In this document: piece by piece, positions 7,381 to 34,429 of the stretch
Layout: every line of letters starts with the position of its first letter
How positions within the stretch are numbered: position 1 is the first letter of the stretch
NCBI GenBank assembly: GCA_964460145.1
Contig: CAYWPH010000001.1
Coordinates: 26,579 to 90,578, forward strand
Source of the DNA: an uncultured Gammaproteobacteria bacterium
GTDB taxonomy: Bacteria > Patescibacteriota > Microgenomatia > Levybacterales > UBA12049
Length of the DNA stretch: 64,000 nucleotides
Reading direction: 5' to 3'
Made by a program: the position numbers and the translations under genes
Notes under the pieces: generated by a model
Told to the model about the DNA's origin: nothing
What the model saw: the letters and a program-made list of their open reading frames with translations, nothing else
Database searches by the model: none

Positions 7381-7857
7381 ATGGAAACTATCGAAAATCT
7401 TCTCAATAAATCCTTTAAATTCCTTTCCTATAGACCAAGAAGTGAAAAAGAAGTAAGAGATTATTTGCTCAAGAAAAAAGCTGATGATTTAACTCTTGAG
7501 AAAATTATTAAAAGACTAAAAGAGCACAATTTCATTAATGATTCAAATTTTACCAAATGGTGGATTGAACAAAGAACAAAATTTAGGCCTAAGGCAGTAA
7601 GGATAATTAAGTTAGAGTTACTTAGAAAGGGAATTGCTAAAGATTTAATAGAAGAAATATTACAAGATAAAACAGTCGAGACAGAAACCGACCTAGATAA
7701 AGCCAGAAAACTTGCAATAAAAAGAATTGAAAGATATAAAAACGAAGAACCTCAAAAAAAATATGAAAAAATGGTCAGATTTTTAGCCTCTAAAGGGTTT
7801 GATTGGGACACAGTTAAAGAAGTTATTGACCAATTAATTCCCAAAAGGTATAATTAG
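7381..7857 (+). CDS. recX: RecA regulator RecX
   Basis: About 158-aa helical repeat protein directly after recA (SYRPRSEKEVRDYLLKK). Confidence 0.75.
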   Translation: METIENLLNKSFKFLSYRPRSEKEVRDYLLKKKADDLTLEKIIKRLKEHNFINDSNFTKWWIEQRTKFRPKAVRIIKLELLRKGIAKDLIEEILQDKTVETETDLDKARKLAIKRIERYKNEEPQKKYEKMVRFLASKGFDWDTVKEVIDQLIPKRYN

Positions 7858-7972
7858 CTCTAAGCAATAGAGCAAGGGCAAAGTTGTTATATGAAAAGTA
7901 CAGAGTTTCCCTTTTCCATATTCCACTTAAAAAGAGCTTAAATAGCTCTTGCTTCTTTATTGTTTAAAAATT

Positions 7973-9241
7973 ATGGCACAAGATAATCAGGATTTAATTC
8001 AATTAGAAAAAAAACTCCTTGAAAGACAGGAGAAATTGGATAATGAAAAAGAACAGTTAGAAAAAGAAAAAGAAAAGCTTCAGAAAACAAAAGACAATCT
8101 TGAAGAGCTTTTGGAAAAAGTTTCCTCTCTTACCGCTCAAGAAGCCAAAAGAGAGCTTCTTGAGCTTATTGAGCAAAAAGAAGTAGCAACTGTTGCAAAA
8201 ATAATCAGGGAAAGAGAAGAAGAAGCTTTAAAAACCGCAGATAAAAAAGCTCAGGAAATTTTGGTTGAAAGTATGAGGCACGGGGTTTTAGACTATATAG
8301 CAGAATATACTGTTTCTGTTGTAAAGATTACGGATGAAGATGTAAAGGGAAGAATAATCGGAAAAGAAGGAAGAAATATTAGAGCTTTTGAGCAGGCAAC
8401 CGGAGTAGACGTAGACTTAGACGAAGAGGGAATTATCAGGCTTTCATCTTTTGATCAGGTAAGAAGAGAAGTTGCAAGAAGAGCTTTAGAAAAATTAATT
8501 AAAGATACAAGAATTCAGCCTTTTAGAATTGAAGAGATAGTCTCTCAGACAAAGGCAGAAGTTGAGAAAATAATGTTTGAGGAAGGTGAGCGTTTAGCTC
8601 ACGAAGCAGGGGTATATAACCTTTCAAAAGAAATATTATCAGTTTTGGGAAGATTTAAATTTAGAACCTCATATGGACAAAATCTTATCGTCCATACACT
8701 CGAAGATACAAAAATTGGAGTTCATATTGCAGCAGAAATTGGAGCTGATGTAAATATCGTAAAACTAGGGTGTCTTTTCCATGATATCGGAAAGGTAATT
8801 GAAGGAGAGGGAAGTCACGTAAATTTAGGAGTAGAGTTTTTGAAAAAACACAATATTCCAGAAGCTATTATAAACTGCGTTGCAGAGCATCATGAAGATA
8901 AACCATTTTCTTCAGTTGAGTCAGTAATTGTTCATATTGCCGATGCAATTTCTGGAGCAAGACCAGGAGCAAGATACGAAGACATAGGAGAGTATGCAAA
9001 AAGACTTACTCAAATGGAAGAAATTGCCAAAAAATTTGATGGAGTACAAGATGCCTATGCATTTGAAGCAGGAAGGGAACTTCGAGTAATTATTAACCCA
9101 GGAGCTTTAAGCGATGAAGAAACTACAGTTTTAGCAGCAAAAATAAGAGATGAAGTAAGTAAAGTCTTAGCAGTCCCGGGAGAAATAAAAGTTACAGCAA
9201 TTAGAGAATTTAGGGCAGTTTCCTCAGAGTTTTCTTCGTAA
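7973..9241 (+). CDS. rny: Ribonuclease Y (KH + HD domains); C-terminal 8 residues are encoded by repeat R1
   Basis: KH domain IIGKEGRNIRAFEQATGVDVDL and HD domain LFHDIGK; N-terminal coiled coil. The start may instead be at 7949. Confidence 0.85.
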   Translation: MAQDNQDLIQLEKKLLERQEKLDNEKEQLEKEKEKLQKTKDNLEELLEKVSSLTAQEAKRELLELIEQKEVATVAKIIREREEEALKTADKKAQEILVESMRHGVLDYIAEYTVSVVKITDEDVKGRIIGKEGRNIRAFEQATGVDVDLDEEGIIRLSSFDQVRREVARRALEKLIKDTRIQPFRIEEIVSQTKAEVEKIMFEEGERLAHEAGVYNLSKEILSVLGRFKFRTSYGQNLIVHTLEDTKIGVHIAAEIGADVNIVKLGCLFHDIGKVIEGEGSHVNLGVEFLKKHNIPEAIINCVAEHHEDKPFSSVESVIVHIADAISGARPGARYEDIGEYAKRLTQMEEIAKKFDGVQDAYAFEAGRELRVIINPGALSDEETTVLAAKIRDEVSKVLAVPGEIKVTAIREFRAVSSEFSS

Positions 9242-27380: not shown

Positions 27381-27542
27381 TTTGACAAATAAAATATTTA
27401 GTGTTAGAATAAGCAAGTCAATGAAAAACTTAGTTATTAGTTTTGAAGATAAGTGCAAGAAGAACCTTTCAATGAGGGGTTTTGTCTTGTCGTAAATTTA
27501 GACCCAAAAGTAACGAGACGCCCCTCAGTAGAGGGGTTTTTT
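27381..27542 (+). promoter_or_regulatory. Leader-peptide attenuator A: promoter, 24-aa Lys-codon leader ORF (27421-27495), hairpin 1, intrinsic terminator (27519-27542)
   Basis: Promoter is -35 TTGACA, a 17-nt spacer and -10 TAGAAT. The ORF encodes MKNLVISFEDKCKKNLSMRGFVLS, with Lys codons at 27451-27462. GAGGGG (27474-79) can pair with either CCTT (27465-68) or the terminator arm CCCCTC (27521-26). The terminator is CCCCTC-AGTA-GAGGGG plus T6. Confidence 0.6.
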
Positions 27543-27653
27543 AATGGGAAAAACAAATATGGCAACAATAAATAGAAATGTAAAACTTATCCGTCGGGTA
27601 AAAACAGTTGATTATTTTGCAACTGTAGATTTTAGCATACTAAGGAGGTCATT

Positions 27654-28991
27654 ATGATTATTCTTAAATTTGGAGGCACATCTGTCAGTAGTACTAAAAG
27701 CCTAAAAACAATAGTAGATATTGTAAAAAGACAAAAAGATAAAAATCCTATTGTCGTAGTCTCAGCTGTTTCTGGTGTAACAGATTTATTACTATCTCTT
27801 TTTAAAAATGAAGGAAATAGAGAAACTATTCTTAAACAAATAGAAAATTTACATTCTAATTTAATAGAAGATTATTATGGAAAAGTTCCAATTGAACAAA
27901 GAGGTTATATTTTAGATTGTTTAAAAAAAGTAAACAAACTTTTAAATGGAAATGTAAATAATTTAGAACTTTGCGATGAAATTATTTCATTTGGAGAAAT
28001 TATGTCTTCATATATCATTGCAAATATATTAAATGGGTCTAATATTAATGCAAGACAAATCATTGCAACTTCATTAATTGTAACCAATGACCATTTTGGT
28101 TCTGCTGAATTTTTACCCAGTGAAACACAACAACAATCTAAAAAAATATTGATACCTCTTGTTAAAAAAGGGATAGTTCCAGTGGTTACTGGTTTTATTG
28201 GTCAAACAAAAAATGGAAAAATTACTACACTTGGAAGAGGCGGATCGGATTATACAGCAGCAATACTTGGATTTTGTCTCTCTGCTAAAGAAATTCAAAT
28301 ATGGACTGACGTAGATGGAATTTTTACTTCTGATCCTAAGCTTATCAAGCAAGCAAAAGTGATTTCAGACGTTTCATATAAAGAGGCCTCAGAGCTTGCT
28401 GCATTTGGCGCAAAAATTCTCCATCCAAGAACAATTCGCCCAGCAATTTCTTCCGGAATTCCAGTTAGAGTTCTAAATACTTTTAATCCAACTGCCAAAG
28501 GGACTATTATTAAAAATAGAGATAGACAAAAAAGTCATATTGTTGCAATAGCATCAAAAAGAAAAATTACACTTGTTACTATTTACTCAACAGATATGCT
28601 CTTGAGTAAAGGATTTTTAGTAAGAGTTTTTTCTATTTTTTCTAAATACAATATTTCAATCGATCTTGTTAGCGTTTCAGAAGTAAGTATATCAGCGTCT
28701 TTAGATAATGATGAAAATTTACAAAATGCTATAAAAGAACTGGAAAAATTTGCAACGATCACAACAACTCGGCAACTTGGAATGATATCTTTAATTGGAG
28801 AAAAAATTGTAAATGTTAAAAATATTTTAAAAGAGATTTTCTCAATTTTAGACAACTCAAACATTGAAGTAAAAATGATTTCTCTTGGCGCAACAGACAT
28901 AAATATTAGTTTAGTTTTACCATCTTTAAAAATAGATAAAAGTGTAAACTTATTACATAAAGCACTAATTAACAAAGGAGAGATTTTATGA
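27654..28991 (+). CDS. lysC: Aspartate kinase
   Basis: MIILKFGGTSV amino-acid kinase N-terminus with C-terminal ACT domains; preceded by an RBS. Confidence 0.9.
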   Translation: MIILKFGGTSVSSTKSLKTIVDIVKRQKDKNPIVVVSAVSGVTDLLLSLFKNEGNRETILKQIENLHSNLIEDYYGKVPIEQRGYILDCLKKVNKLLNGNVNNLELCDEIISFGEIMSSYIIANILNGSNINARQIIATSLIVTNDHFGSAEFLPSETQQQSKKILIPLVKKGIVPVVTGFIGQTKNGKITTLGRGGSDYTAAILGFCLSAKEIQIWTDVDGIFTSDPKLIKQAKVISDVSYKEASELAAFGAKILHPRTIRPAISSGIPVRVLNTFNPTAKGTIIKNRDRQKSHIVAIASKRKITLVTIYSTDMLLSKGFLVRVFSIFSKYNISIDLVSVSEVSISASLDNDENLQNAIKELEKFATITTTRQLGMISLIGEKIVNVKNILKEIFSILDNSNIEVKMISLGATDINISLVLPSLKIDKSVNLLHKALINKGEIL

Positions 28992-29737
28992 AAATAGGAT
29001 TGATTGGTTACGGTCACATGGGTCAGGAAATAGAAGCTTTAGTAAAAGAGCAAGGGCATTCTATTACCTCAATCAGTTTTAGAGAGAGAAGCTTAGGTTT
29101 GGATAAAGAGGGAATTAAAAATTCCGATGTGGTTATCGATTTTAGCTCACCTGAAATAATTATTTCTAATATAAAAGCTGTTATGGAGTTAAATAAACCC
29201 ATCGTTATCGGAACAACCGGTTGGTATCAAGACATTAAAAAAGTACAAAAAATTGTAAAACAATATAAAGGAAGTTTAATTTATGGACAGAATTTTTCTA
29301 TTGGCGCAAATATATTTTTCTCTATAGTCTCATATGCAGGTAGTCTTTTATCTCAATACAAAGATTATGATGTTTTTGGTATTGAAACTCACCACAGCGG
29401 TAAAAAAGACAGCCCCAGTGGTACTGCAAGAAAACTAGCTGAAATTATCATGCAAAACTTTCCTTCAAAAACAAAACTTCAATTAGAAAGACTTGATAGA
29501 AAAATACAAAAAGAAGAACTGCATTTTGTATCGGTAAGAGGAGGAAGAAATTTCGGCCGGCATGAAATTGTATTTGATAGTCCAGCTGATGAAATTGTGC
29601 TTACTCATCAGGTTTGGAGTAGAAGAGGTTTTGCACAGGGTGCTTTACTTTCCGCGCAGTTTATTTTGTCAAAAAAAGGCTTTTATAACTTCAACGATAT
29701 TTTTAATAATACAAAAAGGCGGGTGAGAACAAAATGA
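28988..29737 (+). CDS. dapB: 4-Hydroxy-tetrahydrodipicolinate reductase
   Basis: GYGHMGQ NAD-binding site and the IETHHSGKKDSPSGTA DapB signature. Confidence 0.85.
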   Translation: MKIGLIGYGHMGQEIEALVKEQGHSITSISFRERSLGLDKEGIKNSDVVIDFSSPEIIISNIKAVMELNKPIVIGTTGWYQDIKKVQKIVKQYKGSLIYGQNFSIGANIFFSIVSYAGSLLSQYKDYDVFGIETHHSGKKDSPSGTARKLAEIIMQNFPSKTKLQLERLDRKIQKEELHFVSVRGGRNFGRHEIVFDSPADEIVLTHQVWSRRGFAQGALLSAQFILSKKGFYNFNDIFNNTKRRVRTK

Positions 29738-30618
29738 AAAAATTTACAGGTGCAATAACAGCTCTTACAACACCTTTTAAAAAAGATGGGTCAATAGATA
29801 TTGAATCTTTAAAATCCTTAGTTAAATTTCAATTAAGGGAAGGTATTGACGGTATTGTTCCTTGCGGTTCAACAGGAGAGGCGGCAACTTTAAATGATGA
29901 AGAATATCAACTCGTTGTAAAAACCGTAGTTGAACAAGTTAACGGTAGAGTACCGGTAATAGCGGGTGCAGGGAGTAACGACACATTAAAAGCAGTTCAT
30001 TTTTCTTTACTTTCCAAAAAAATGGGAGCAGACGCTCTTTTACATGTTACACCATACTACAATAAACCAACTGTAAACGGTTTAGTTGCTCATTACAAAG
30101 CAATTGCTAAAGCAGTTGATATGCCTATTGTTTTATACAATGTTCCTGGAAGAACAGGATTAAATGCATCAGCGGATACAACTTTAAAAATTGCAAAAAA
30201 TGTCCCGCAGGTAGTTGCGGTAAAAGAAGCATCGGGAAATTTAACACAAATGATGGAAATTGTAAAAAAAGCTCCATCTTATTTTAGTGTTTTATCAGGA
30301 GATGATATTTTAACCTTGCCACTTATTAGCGTAGGAGGACACGGTTGTATATCTGTTGTTTCCAATGAGGTTCCAAAATTCTTTAGTCAATTAATTGCTT
30401 ATGCACTGAATGGAGACTTTAAAAAAGCAAAACAAATGCATTACAAACTACTGGATTTAATGAATGTGAACTTTATCGAAACCAATCCTCTTCCTGTTAA
30501 AGCAGCACTTTCTTTAATGGGAAAAATTGAAGAGGTATTTAGGTTGCCTTTAGTTCCAATGGAAGAGAAAAATAAACTTGTACTTAAAGATGTTTTGAGG
30601 GACTTAGATTTAATATGA
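29734..30618 (+). CDS. dapA: 4-Hydroxy-tetrahydrodipicolinate synthase
   Basis: GIVPCGSTGEAATL and the DapA/NAL family Lys region VAVKEASGN. Confidence 0.85.
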   Translation: MKKFTGAITALTTPFKKDGSIDIESLKSLVKFQLREGIDGIVPCGSTGEAATLNDEEYQLVVKTVVEQVNGRVPVIAGAGSNDTLKAVHFSLLSKKMGADALLHVTPYYNKPTVNGLVAHYKAIAKAVDMPIVLYNVPGRTGLNASADTTLKIAKNVPQVVAVKEASGNLTQMMEIVKKAPSYFSVLSGDDILTLPLISVGGHGCISVVSNEVPKFFSQLIAYALNGDFKKAKQMHYKLLDLMNVNFIETNPLPVKAALSLMGKIEEVFRLPLVPMEEKNKLVLKDVLRDLDLI

Positions 30619-31661
30619 GAAAAATATCTGTTGGAATTTTAGGAGCAACCGGAAATGTGGGACAGCGGTTTGTGCAACTTTTGGATAATCATCCGTGGTT
30701 TGAAGTTAAATATCTTTGTGCGTCTGAAAAAAGTTATGGGCAAAGGTATGGAGATATTGTAAATTGGAAAGTTTCTCCAAAAATACCTGAAAACGTAGCT
30801 AGCATGAGGCTTCGTTTATGTGTGCCTAATTTTAAAGCACGGGTTGTATTTTCTGCGCTTGATTCATTAGTTGCCGGTCCAATTGAGGAAGATTTTGCCA
30901 AAAGTGGATACATTGTTATTAGTAATTCCAAAAATCACAGAATGGATAAAGATGTTCCCCTTCTTATTCCAGAAGTAAATCCAGAGCACCTAGATTTAAT
31001 ACCAGTTCAAAGGAAAAGATTAGGAGGGAAAGGTTTTATTGTCACAAACCCAAATTGTACAACGATAGGTCTTACTATGGCGCTTAAACCATTGCAAGAT
31101 GCATTTGGAGTCAGCAAAGTCATAGTCACCACAATGCAGGCATTATCTGGAGCAGGATATCCAGGAGTCCCATCTTTAGATGCAATTGATAATGTAGTGC
31201 CATATATAGGAGATGAAGAAGAAAAAGTTGAAACAGAACCTTTAAAACTACTAGGTAGTTTAGGAAATGGGAAAATAAGCAATGCAAATATTGCAATAAG
31301 TGCACATTGTAATCGTGTTGCAGTTAGGGATGGACATTTAGAATCAGTAACGGTTGAACTAATTAAAAAAGCCGGTATTGAAGAGATTTTAAAAGTTTTT
31401 AGAGATTTTAAAAGTATTCCTCAAAAATTAAATCTTCCATCAGCCCCCCAAAATCCCATTATTGTTCGCATGGAAAATGACAGGCCCCAGCCTGTATTAG
31501 ACAGGGATATAAATAACGGAATGTCGGTAAGTATTGGAAGAGTCAGGCAGTCAAGTATTTTTGATATTAAATTTACTCTTTTGGTCCATAATACTATACG
31601 TGGTGCCGCCGGAGCAGCTATACTAAATGCAGAACTTATGAAAGCAAAAAATATTATTTAA
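30615..31661 (+). CDS. asd: Aspartate-semialdehyde dehydrogenase
   Basis: [13 protein letters not shown]-binding site; active-site region [11 protein letters not shown]; HCNRVAV. Confidence 0.85.
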
Positions 31662-31670
31662 AAAACATTA

Positions 31671-31828
31671 TTGACAATTTTAGTCCTATAATATAAAATT
31701 ACAATATTATGAATTATATCTTTAATTTAGTAAATAAAGAGACAAAAAAGAACCTCTTAACGAGGGGATTTGTCTTGTAATAAATTTAATTAATGAAACA
31801 GGATAAGCCCCTCTTCGAGGGGTTTTTT
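31671..31828 (+). promoter_or_regulatory. Leader-peptide attenuator B: promoter, 23-aa Lys-codon leader ORF (31709-31780), intrinsic terminator (31806-31828)
   Basis: Promoter is -35 TTGACA plus -10 TAAAAT. The ORF encodes MNYIFNLVNKETKKNLLTRGFVL. The CCTC/GAGGGG hairpin and the CCCCTC-TTC-GAGGGG plus T6 terminator are near-identical to attenuator A. Confidence 0.6.
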
Positions 31829-31840
31829 AGTGAAAAAAAT

Positions 31841-32857
31841 ATGAGAGAAAGGTTATCTTTTCAGTATCGGGAAAGTGAAAATGCCGACTTTATTGCATGG
31901 CAATTTAATTCTTGTGGTTCAGTATATACGGCAGCTGCCATAGACAATAATAGAGTTCTTGTTGGAGGAAGTCTTTGGCAAAGAAAATTTGTTCCGTTTT
32001 CCGATGATTCAAGAACGCAGCAGGGAGTAGTGCAAGCTGTTGGTGGTCAAGAATGGCATCCAGAAACAATAAAGTTTTCTTCGATGGTAAATTCTGTCTT
32101 GCCTTTTAGGGACAGATACATTGTTTGTTGTAAATATGGAGAACAAGCATATAGCGTTATAGGTCAAGATCTGCAAGTTCAAAAAACCGCAGATGATTCA
32201 AGAGGTAATGGTGTTTATAACGCTTTGATTACTAGCGAAGAAGAGCTTGTTTCTGCAGTTAGAAATGGCGGCTTGTCATTTCGTAATCCATTTACTCTTG
32301 ACTTAATTGATTATGTTAGCTTATCCGGAAATGTGCGTTTATGGTCAGTGGCTCAACTGCTGGAAGGCAGGTTGATTGCTGGAGATTACGCGGGTATGAT
32401 TTATATAGTTAAAGATGGGAAATTAGAATCTGTATTTAATCTTGGTAATCAGTCAAGACAAGAAGTGCCTGAATTTCAGCAAAGATTCGAGCCGTCTGTA
32501 TTTGGACTTTCAGTATCAGACGCGGGAAATGTAGCAGCTGCGGTTAGATGGGGAGGTATATACTGGTTTAATCGGGAAATGGAGCTTGAGAGGTCTTTAA
32601 TTATTCCACATGAGATATCAACTGTTGAGTATGTTCCCGAGTCAGAGGATCTTTTAATTGGAACAAGATCCGGGTCTCTTTTGCACTTAAGAGATTTAGA
32701 CAATGAAATAATGCTTACAAGATTATTATCTATAAAACCGGCTTTGCAAAATGATAACTCTATTTGGTCTATTTCTTTTGATCTAGATAAAAGGCCAATT
32801 GTTGCTTTTGCAGATGGGCAAGTAATAAAAATTAGTCAATTAGCGCAAAGAGATTAG
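31841..32857 (+). CDS. Hypothetical beta-propeller-like protein (atypical composition), first gene of the lysK operon
   Basis: About 8 repeated blade-like segments (e.g. RVLVGGSLW, YIVKDGKL, LLIGTRSGSLLHL, IVAFADGQVIKI). GC is higher than the neighbours. The listed start 31793 overlaps the terminator, so ATG 31841 is preferred. Confidence 0.5.
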   Translation: MRERLSFQYRESENADFIAWQFNSCGSVYTAAAIDNNRVLVGGSLWQRKFVPFSDDSRTQQGVVQAVGGQEWHPETIKFSSMVNSVLPFRDRYIVCCKYGEQAYSVIGQDLQVQKTADDSRGNGVYNALITSEEELVSAVRNGGLSFRNPFTLDLIDYVSLSGNVRLWSVAQLLEGRLIAGDYAGMIYIVKDGKLESVFNLGNQSRQEVPEFQQRFEPSVFGLSVSDAGNVAAAVRWGGIYWFNREMELERSLIIPHEISTVEYVPESEDLLIGTRSGSLLHLRDLDNEIMLTRLLSIKPALQNDNSIWSISFDLDKRPIVAFADGQVIKISQLAQRD

Positions 32858-32902
32858 ATTTATCTTTATTCTTTGCAAACGAATAGGTATAATAATAACA
32901 TT

Positions 32903-34429
32903 ATGTTTTGGGCAGATAAAACAGCAGACGAAATAATAAAATCGGGAAAATATAAACCATATTGGGTTGACGACATGAAAACCCCATCTGGCAGAGTTCA
33001 TGTGGGAGCTTTACGTGGAGTAGTAGTTCATGATCTTGTATACAAAGCACTTCTTAAAAAAGGAGTAAAAGCAAAATACACATATGTTTTTGAAGACCAC
33101 GACCCAATGGATGATATACCATCATATTTAGATAGGGAAAAATTTGAGCAGTATTTAGGTATGCCTCTTTTTAAAATTCCCTCCCCGGTTGAAGGATTTG
33201 AGAATTATGCGAGATATTACGCAGCAGATTTTCAAAAAGTATTCAATGCAATAGGATGTGAGCCGGAAATTATTTGGACTAAAGACTTATACACAAGCGG
33301 AAAAATTAATCCAATGATTAAAGATGTTTTGGATAACGCAGCTGAAATTAGAAAAATATATGAAGAAATGTATGATAAAAAATTGCCAGATAACTGGTAT
33401 CCGTTTCAATTGTATTGTCCAAATTGCGGTAAGGTTTCAACAACCCAAGTTTCCGATTGGGACGGAGAGCTAGTTACCTTTGAATGTCTGGTAGATAAAG
33501 TGAAATGGACAAAAGGCTGCGGGGAAAAGGGAAAAGCCTCGCCATTTAGCAGTGAGAAAGGAATTGTCGGAAAACTTGTTTGGAAAGTTGATTGGCCAGC
33601 AAAATGGAAAGCAATAGGAATAACGATTGAGGGAGCAGGAAAAGATCATATGTCCAAAGGAGGATCACATGATTTAGCAAGTCAAGTTTGCAAAAGAGTT
33701 CTGCATTACCCTATTCCTTATCCAATACCTTATGAGTGGATTTTAATTGGTGGTCGAAAAATGTCTTCTTCCAAAGGAGTGGGAATTGTAGCCTCAGACA
33801 TGCTTGAAATTCTGCCTCCAGAATTAATTCGATTTTTAATTGTAAGAATTAAAGTAAATACACAGATTAATTTTGATCCTGCAGAACCCAATACAATTGC
33901 AAATCTATTTGATGATTATCAAAAGTCGGCTGATGCATATTTCAATAAAGGAGATAGTGATCTTGCCCGAATTTTTGAACTTTCACAAATTGAAGGAAAA
34001 ATTAAACATCCTCCATCTGTTAGATTTTCACTTCTAACGCAATGGGTGCAGATGCACAATATGGAAGAAGAAATTAAAAAAAATAATTTAGGGGACTGGG
34101 TAGTATATGCAAAAAACTGGGTAGAAAAATATGCGCCTGAAAGTGAAAGATTTACTGTGCAAAAAGATACGCCATCACAAGTTAGTAAGTTGTCCAACGA
34201 ACAAAGAAAAGCTCTAAAGCAAATTGCAGATAGCCTTGATAAAAAATGGACACCCGAAGAATTGCAAACGAGAGTTTACGATATAGGAAAAAATTTAGGC
34301 TTAAACGGCAAACAAACTTTTGCGGCAATTTATCTATCTCTGCTTGGAAAAGACCATGGTCCAAAAGCGGCGTGGTTGATACTATCTTTGGAGAAAGAGT
34401 TTGTTAAAAAAAGATTTAATGAGGTCTAG
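32903..34429 (+). CDS. lysK: Class I lysyl-tRNA synthetase
   Basis: MFWADK N-terminus; HIGH-like HVGA; KMSKS motif as KMSSSKG; about 510 aa, typical of LysRS-I. Confidence 0.75.
   Translation: MFWADKTADEIIKSGKYKPYWVDDMKTPSGRVHVGALRGVVVHDLVYKALLKKGVKAKYTYVFEDHDPMDDIPSYLDREKFEQYLGMPLFKIPSPVEGFENYARYYAADFQKVFNAIGCEPEIIWTKDLYTSGKINPMIKDVLDNAAEIRKIYEEMYDKKLPDNWYPFQLYCPNCGKVSTTQVSDWDGELVTFECLVDKVKWTKGCGEKGKASPFSSEKGIVGKLVWKVDWPAKWKAIGITIEGAGKDHMSKGGSHDLASQVCKRVLHYPIPYPIPYEWILIGGRKMSSSKGVGIVASDMLEILPPELIRFLIVRIKVNTQINFDPAEPNTIANLFDDYQKSADAYFNKGDSDLARIFELSQIEGKIKHPPSVRFSLLTQWVQMHNMEEEIKKNNLGDWVVYAKNWVEKYAPESERFTVQKDTPSQVSKLSNEQRKALKQIADSLDKKWTPEELQTRVYDIGKNLGLNGKQTFAAIYLSLLGKDHGPKAAWLILSLEKEFVKKRFNEV

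Follow-up and report, generated by a model that had tools for sequence, protein, structure and literature searches.

We analysed a 64-kb stretch of DNA (the window; GC 32.9%; all coordinates are window positions, on the + strand unless stated otherwise) carrying lysK, the gene of a class I lysyl-tRNA synthetase (LysRS) whose relatives belong to Candidatus Levybacteria/Microgenomates (Patescibacteria, candidate phyla radiation, CPR). We propose that the segment at 31671-31828 is likely to be a ribosome-mediated leader-peptide transcription attenuator that senses charged tRNA-Lys and controls a beta-propeller gene together with lysK. A paralogous leader at 27382-27542 would control the lysine biosynthesis genes lysC-dapB-dapA-asd in the same way. 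A preliminary description of the region had put forward such a lysine attenuator, and all the features it listed were recovered at their positions. Its view that two leader copies define a small lysine regulon, covering both biosynthesis and tRNA charging, is supported by the results below; its suggestion that the propeller protein might perform a missing step of the diaminopimelate (DAP) pathway is not.

Anatomy of the two leaders and proposed switch

The leader upstream of the propeller gene (copy 2) opens with a promoter at 31671-31699 (TTGACA-17-TAAAAT, matching the consensus at 11 of 12 positions), whose −10 box ends 9 nt before the ATG of a 23-codon short open reading frame (sORF; 31709-31780, MNYIFNLVNKETKKNLLTRGFVL). 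The mRNA of this sORF has no Shine-Dalgarno sequence and would be nearly leaderless. Lys codons lie at 31736 (AAA), 31745 (AAA) and 31748 (AAG). Hairpin 1:2 (31753-31767) consists of segment 1 (CCTC, 31753-31756) and segment 2 (GAGGGG, 31762-31767), which start 5 nt and 14 nt, respectively, from the first base of the last Lys codon. In the antiterminator 2:3 (31762-31813), GAGGGG-A-TTTGTCTTGT pairs with ACAGGATAAG-CCCCTC, with a predicted energy of −21 kcal/mol when the ribosome is stalled at the Lys codons, and the intrinsic terminator 3:4 (31808-31828) reads CCCCTC-TTC-GAGGGG followed by six T. The antiterminator reaches past the GAGGGG:CCCCTC core: GTCTTG(T) pairs with CGAGAC in copy 1 and with ACAGGAT in copy 2, and other lineages have other partners.

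The regulatory scenario that we propose for this leader is as follows. The strong sigma-70-type promoter would start transcription a few nucleotides ahead of the AUG of the 23-codon reading frame. When Lys-tRNA is plentiful, the ribosome would reach the stop codon and cover segment 2 together with the adjoining GUCUUG strand; with segment 2 covered, the 3:4 helix (CCCCUC/GAGGGG and U6) would fold and transcription would terminate. When Lys-tRNA is scarce, the ribosome would stall at the tandem Lys codons (31745-31750), masking segment 1 (+5 nt) and not segment 2 (+14 nt). The free segment 2 and its extension would then pair with the 5' arm of the terminator, and the resulting antiterminator would allow the RNA polymerase to read into the propeller gene and lysK. 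In the absence of translation, helices 1:2 and 3:4 would both form, again leading to termination.

Copy 1 is organized in the same way. Its promoter at 27382-27410 (TTGACA-17-TAGAAT, with a TG before the −10 box) also matches 11 of 12 consensus positions and ends 10 nt before the ATG of an sORF at 27421-27495 (MKNLVISFEDKCKKNLSMRGFVLS), in which the Lys codons at 27451, 27457 and 27460 are all AAG. Hairpin 1:2 (27465-27479) is formed by CCTT (27465-27468) and GAGGGG (27474-27479), the antiterminator (27474-27526) by GAGGGG..GTCTTG (27474-27489) and CGAGAC-G-CCCCTC (27514-27526), and the terminator (27520-27542) by GCCCCTC-AGTA-GAGGGGT followed by six T. No other CCCCTC..GAGGGG-T terminator occurs in the window, and a model of the leader matched the + strand of the window only at the two copies, a weak echo on the reverse strand (E = 0.1) overlapping copy 2.

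The two leaders are thus paralogous copies with the same layout, although "near-identical", as they had been called in the preliminary description, is too strong for an identity of 84% over a 44-nt core and 75% over the whole leader. Copy 1 is orthologous to the leader of L008, the closest relative with a full context (loci are designated by L numbers), with which it shares 86% identity. Copy 2 is about as similar to leaders found directly before lysK in other genera (77-78%) as it is to copy 1, and is therefore not a recent copy of leader 1. A recent duplication of copy 1 was considered as the origin of copy 2 and was rejected on these identities.

Conservation, codon content and helices of the leader family

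We then asked how far the leader extends beyond the window. Eighty lysK loci were taken from GTDB Microgenomates genomes, and a covariance model (R1) was built from 12 leaders. R1 matched the + strand at 20 of the 80 loci (E <= 0.011), before lysK itself or before an operon with lysK as its last gene; the leader is therefore conserved before lysK orthologues in at least 20 of the 80 relatives. It also matched in front of propeller homologues on metagenome contigs. Two further matches, one upstream of greA (L085, E 0.017) and one covering the greA C-terminus and its terminator (L032), were treated as false positives. An intrinsic terminator, made of a G+C stem and a run of at least five T, is present in every instance.

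The genes behind the leader, which include LysRS, a DAP operon, a LysW operon and, in the window, lysC-dapB-dapA-asd, argue for a specificity for lysine. In L008, a single leader is followed by dapL-lysA-lysC-dapB-dapA-asd-lysK. In L043 (Gottesmanbacteria) the leader precedes lysW-lysX-lysY-lysZ-lysJ-...-lysK, of the LysW/aminoadipate pathway; M20 peptidases stand behind it in L038 and L044; and in L004 and L089 the leader and a propeller gene are followed by class II lysS (TIGR00499, above cut-off) and not by a class I gene. According to these operons, one leader type would serve both lysine pathways and both LysRS classes. We also observed, in two other loci of Gottesmanbacteria (L080 7860-9937 and L082 3003-5080), a Lys leader followed by a Lys-poor 359-aa protein, an amidohydrolase of the histone-deacetylase family and lysK; this amidohydrolase may provide a route releasing lysine from acetyl-lysine.

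An in-frame ATG lies 6-15 nt past the consensus −10 box in every leader examined, and all 29 of 29 leaders have an ATG right after the promoter. Lys is the commonest residue of the leader peptides, at 18.4% versus 8.5% in the long open reading frames (ORFs) of the same loci (24 leaders; binomial P = 7e-12), and a tandem KK, often as KKxKK, is found in 23 of these 24. The distance from the last Lys codon is a median of 5 nt to segment 1 and 14 nt to segment 2, a geometry in which a stalled ribosome could mask segment 1 and spare segment 2. Moreover, AAG makes up 61% of the Lys codons in the leaders, versus 20% genome-wide and 19% in KK dipeptides of the background.

Folding and covariation point in the same direction. 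Under constrained folding, a ribosome masking the RNA up to +12 nt of the Lys codon left most leaders folded into the 2:3 antiterminator (−20 to −24 kcal/mol), and a ribosome masking it up to the stop codon left the 3:4 terminator (−11 to −16 kcal/mol). Cognate 2:3 duplexes were better than the non-cognate mean in 23 of 25 leaders, and in divergent members all four segments change jointly, to CTCC/GGAG in L094 and CCCAC/GTGGG in L095. Pairs were counted on a MAFFT alignment not fitted to structure and compared with 500 shuffles. Helices 1:2 and 3:4 together were paired in 85% of cells, with 21 double changes versus 8.2 in the shuffles, and the core of 2:3 in 81.6% of cells, with 12 double changes versus 3.9; in both cases, none of the 500 shuffles reached the observed value.

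Could the RNA itself be the sensor, either as a small riboswitch or as a leader bound by a protein or a tRNA, with the sORF and its Lys codons incidental? The nucleotides of segment 2 and of its extension (GAGGGGnTTTGTCTTG) are conserved, even at the synonymous positions of the Phe-Val-Leu codons, and the AAGAAG tract is complementary to the U-tract of the terminator, in what is the sole helix reported by RNAalifold. However, such a sensor leaves aside the in-frame ATG after the promoter in 29 of 29 leaders, the roughly twofold enrichment in Lys and the KK set at a fixed distance from segment 1. Nor would it account for the AAG bias, which is explained neither by pairing (G-U is no better than A-U) nor by avoidance of poly-A, since background KK dipeptides show 19%. 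Moreover, only about 120 nt of simple hairpins separate the sORF start from the terminator, without any junction resembling a ligand pocket. The whole window gave no Rfam match at the gathering threshold, and the hits listed for both leaders at E <= 10 included neither a lysine riboswitch nor a T-box, the best being Phe_leader at E ~1, the level of chance. We therefore consider an RNA-only switch improbable.

An arrest peptide like TnaC or SpeFL, in which an RGFVL(A) C-terminus would stall the ribosome on free lysine, is more improbable still. RGFVLA followed by the stop codon is indeed common to many leaders of Levybacteria, and the third positions of its Gly and Ala codons vary synonymously. 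However, across the family the residues before the stop codon are unrelated (RGFVLA, NSS, SLF, EGWLL, QSQTGRAAHGK, DPFI), while KK and the RNA helices persist. In the RGFVL-type leaders, the Phe, Val and Leu codons show no synonymous variation, as expected if pairing with AAGACAAA constrains them. Since C-termini diverge while these codons remain fixed, the RNA, and not the peptide, appears to be the constrained object. In addition, a ribosome stalled at the stop codon would promote the terminator, the structure expected by default anyway.

Several observations weigh against an attenuator acting through ribosome stalling, or limit its reach. First, the leader was undetected at 60 of the 80 lysK loci. 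Second, the start of transcription, the translation of the sORF, the stalling, the switch between helices and the response to lysine are steps that we infer from sequence. Third, under the stalled constraint the terminator stays in the minimum free energy structure of L025, L041, L036 and L004 (4 of the first 12 leaders folded), and also in L089 and L095. Fourth, control registers slid along the alignment pair nearly as well, in 74-80% of cells, owing to the G-run; because of this, and because the sequences share a common ancestry, the statistics on covariation are supportive and not decisive. Fifth, RNAalifold, run on the MAFFT alignment, recovers only an outer 1:4 helix, AAGAAGAACC with GGGGUUUUUU. 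This result says little on the alternative helices; since it pairs the A-rich Lys tract, the tract might be kept for a reason at the RNA level. Sixth, a TATAAT box at 32888-32893, 9 nt 5' of the lysK ATG and conserved in L006 and L008, is possibly a weak, near-leaderless promoter of lysK's own; as it is retained just upstream of the gene, lysK expression may partly bypass the attenuator. Finally, as regards the propeller protein, LysRS is not nearby in three contexts of its family (L005, L094 and L095), and no activity is indicated for it.

The propeller protein and the slot before lysK

The first gene behind copy 2 (31841-32857) encodes a 338-aa protein that is cytoplasmic, acidic (isoelectric point 4.9) and devoid of a signal peptide. 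The preliminary description gave it about eight blades; the structure predicted by AlphaFold from a 27-sequence alignment has seven, with 29 strands and high scores (predicted local distance difference test, pLDDT, 93.9; predicted template modelling score, pTM, 0.92), and is a seven-bladed propeller of four-stranded blades of the WD40/PQQ-like superfamily. The protein has no Pfam match at E <= 0.01. Its best sub-threshold match in a comparison with the WD40 family (PF00400) and related curated models has an E of 0.016 and 15 bits versus a cut-off of 88 bits, and some relatives match weakly. No curated family emerged from Pfam, NCBIfam or a PDB sequence profile, which returned just weak PQQ-like/WD40-like repeat matches, and Pfam and NCBIfam gave no enzyme family and no pyridoxal phosphate (PLP) or other cofactor domain.

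The composition of the protein is unusual. Lys amounts to 2.7% of its residues, the lowest value of the 66 ORFs of the window (mean 9.9%). Members of the close subfamily (P0001-P0014) are all poor in Lys (1-5%), and several distant members have 11-18% Lys. The gene was also said to have a GC content clearly above the background; it is higher, at 38.1% versus 32.9% for the window (lysK and asd have 36%), but the excess is modest, about +1 standard deviation at each codon position. As this excess is spread over the three codon positions, and GC at third positions (GC3) and codon usage are host-like, it fits a Lys-poor make-up, Lys codons being AT-rich, and not foreign DNA. A foreign origin of the gene was rejected on the same grounds.

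The family is rare, with 37 cluster representatives in 1.84 billion proteins and 5 matches in 5.8 billion. A metagenome scan with a 6-sequence alignment gave three loci, two of them identical to the window and a third, L088, in which a propeller relative stands without leader or LysRS; the 3' end of L088 consists of a long inverted repeat that probably arose during assembly. Homologues lie directly behind Lys leaders in L003, L004, L089, L091, L092/93 and L095/96, and weakly in L094. They precede a class I LysRS in the window, L002 and L092, and a class II LysS in L004, L089 and probably L003. Upstream of the propeller gene and lysK of L002 there is just a terminator or a degenerate remnant of a leader. 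The synthetases following two of these homologues are themselves extended: L092 (5225-7474) encodes a 749-aa class I LysRS with a C-terminal extension, preceded by dapF, and L089 (2060-3877) a class II LysS that exceeds 600 aa, carries a C-terminal extension and weakly matches the HD domain.

Other lineages carry different ORFs in the slot that separates leader and lysK (L009, L011, L014, L023-L027, L031, L036-L038, L041, L045, L080 and L082), mostly without a Pfam match. They are rich in Arg and usually the most Lys-poor proteins of their locus, about 16 of 28 ranking lowest. Their GC3 is host-like (mean z −0.3), and GC is raised at codon positions 1 and 2 (mean z +2.2). One family of 206-243 aa recurs, in L025, L027, L036, L037 and L041. 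Recognisable enzymes found in the same slot have an ordinary lysine content. Selection for proteins that can be made under lysine shortage fits these data.

What, then, is the propeller protein doing in this operon? A less likely, though by no means negligible, explanation is that its gene is a passenger in a permissive slot, with no lysine-related function, the protein being Lys-poor merely to be translatable when the operon is on. Indeed, the slot holds many non-homologous ORFs, mostly without a Pfam match, the closest relatives, L006 and L008, have no propeller gene, some members of the family have no LysRS neighbour, and the propeller fold is a generic scaffold. However, the same family is found behind Lys leaders in at least seven distinct sequence contexts, adjoining both LysRS classes. 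With just 37 representatives in 1.84 billion proteins, such a recurrence is hard to obtain by chance. The many invariant polar and aromatic residues of the propeller also speak against a passenger; among the invariant positions are W46, R48, N84, K98, D119, Y126, R141, R166, W168, D182, Y183, R236, W237, E258, R276, Q303, D305, N306, W309 and D325. As a Lys-depleted protein, the propeller could still be made in lysine shortage, and its family ties to Lys leaders and to both LysRS classes make a role linked to lysine limitation or, as suggested in the preliminary description, to Lys-tRNA plausible. More speculatively, and as the less probable outcome, the slot may have repeatedly recruited non-homologous Lys-depleted proteins (the 7-blade propeller, the 206-243-aa family and ORFs of 66-125 aa) as a lysine-starvation response that is translatable without lysine, the propeller being an accessory factor of lysyl-tRNA supply or of lysine scavenging. 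Lys-depleted proteins, including this well-folded propeller family, are candidates for a response to lysine limitation.

That the propeller supplies a missing step of lysine biosynthesis in place of DapL, DapF or LysA is hardly credible. In its favour, the operon has lost dapL and lysA, which do not occur anywhere else in the window either, and the L092 homologue lies two genes upstream of dapF. However, no enzyme family is returned by Pfam or NCBIfam, and the WD40/PQQ-like fold lacks PLP and any other cofactor domain. Homologues are also found between greA and class II lysS, where the neighbourhood contains no dap genes, and a single protein could not take over from both an aminotransferase and a decarboxylase. 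In addition, dapL and lysA may simply lie elsewhere in the genome, as the search covered the 64-kb window.

History of the locus and comparison with known systems

The genes of the window follow in the order Nudix-GNAT gene, leader 1, lysC-dapB-dapA-asd, leader 2, the 338-aa ORF, class I lysK, a Ham1-family gene, serS and secA. The operon behind leader 1 (27654-31661) consists of lysC (27654-28991), dapB (28988-29737), dapA (29734-30618) and asd (30615-31661), with overlapping start and stop codons. lysK extends from 32903 to 34429, and its product matches TIGR00467 and PF01921, each above cut-off. No terminator-like site was found in the interval between the propeller gene and lysK. A TATAAT stands 6-9 nt before the lysK ATG, without a Shine-Dalgarno sequence, in the window, in L006 (~1185) and in L008 (~9985). 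In many leaders, including that of the window (31829-31843), A/G-TGG...GAAAAATATG comes right after the T-run of the terminator and runs into the ATG of the first gene; the ribosome-binding site there is at most weak and purine-rich.

Two differences set this locus apart from those of L006 and L008. A 32-codon in-frame remnant at 27559-27657 (MATINRNVKLIRRVKTVDYFATVDFSILRRSL), whose stop codon overlaps the lysC ATG, joins the start of dapL (~10 codons) to the end of lysA (~22 codons). Since both genes are intact at this place in L008, the remnant indicates a dapL-lysA deletion in the window genome, which may be unable to complete lysine synthesis unless genes for the final steps lie in another part of it. 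The second difference concerns a block of about 1.23 kb (31661-32887), made of leader 2 and the propeller gene, which is absent from L006 and L008, where lysK follows asd after ~40 nt. The loss of dapL-lysA and the extra leader-propeller block would show lysine metabolism still being remodelled in a lineage of symbionts.

Another type of leader was observed in L006. At 7857-7987, the same architecture (promoter, sORF and a GGGAGG/CCTCCC attenuator) comes with a Ser-rich, Lys-free sORF (MNSRVDVYNNFSPSLSSYLNFGRFMVL), upstream of a SerB-like phosphatase of the haloacid dehalogenase (HAD) family with a DFDST motif. This is probably a serine attenuator, and it suggests a wider use of leader-peptide control in Levybacteria. 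The CPR/Patescibacteria are uncultivated organisms with reduced genomes, and almost nothing is known of their gene regulation; the leader and its covariance model offer a testable cis-regulatory device for amino-acid sensing in this group. In the literature, we found no description of a Lys leader in the CPR or upstream of lysK.

The classical leader-peptide attenuators are those of E. coli pheM-pheST and of trpL, hisL, leuL and thrL. As in these systems, the leaders described here have a promoter-proximal sORF with clustered cognate codons, mutually exclusive 1:2, 2:3 and 3:4 helices, and an intrinsic terminator ahead of the first structural gene; as in pheM, the leader upstream of lysK would control an aminoacyl-tRNA synthetase. 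By analogy with pheM-pheST, trpL and hisL, the mechanism itself thus appears classical. The hisL leader-peptide attenuator is described in PMC12360218. Unlike pheM, trpL, hisL, leuL and thrL, the present leaders concern lysine and a CPR (Microgenomates) host. Their sORF is leaderless or nearly so, without a Shine-Dalgarno sequence, and contains only 2-5 Lys codons, biased towards the rare AAG. In addition, the sORF extends across segment 2 as well as the antiterminator's 5' strand, and the leaders match no Rfam leader family.

In Thermus thermophilus, a leader peptide with tandem Lys codons is reported by Tsubouchi and colleagues (J Biol Chem 2005) to attenuate transcription of the lysine genes of the aminoadipate pathway. 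That leader, of unrelated sequence and from another phylum, reportedly controls biosynthesis only, whereas the core target here would be a LysRS of either class, with genes of the DAP or LysW pathway as optional cargo. Lysine genes and LysRS are also controlled by RNAs of another kind: the L-box (RF00168) regulates lysC and other lysine genes, and a T-box leader regulates the class I lysK of Bacillus cereus, both being large folded RNAs to which lysine or a tRNA binds directly. The targets and the read-out, premature termination versus read-through, would be the same here, but the leaders of the window are too short and too simple for an L-box or a T-box and have no Rfam match.

In mycobacteria, leaderless poly-Cys sORFs form the first cistron, and their run of cognate codons couples downstream expression to amino-acid supply (10.1101/834739). 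Whereas those attenuators concern Cys and Actinobacteria, the element described here concerns Lys and has an explicit intrinsic terminator and antiterminator. As for the propeller, the protein of the window falls below every Pfam and NCBIfam threshold when set beside known WD40/PQQ-like propellers (PF00400, PF13570; Groucho/TLE1 1gxr, WDR55 7kqq), and unlike these, its family is bacterial, rare, very poor in Lys and linked to Lys leaders and LysRS. Altogether, this type of leader would extend leader-peptide attenuation to lysine, to LysRS of both classes and to both lysine pathways.

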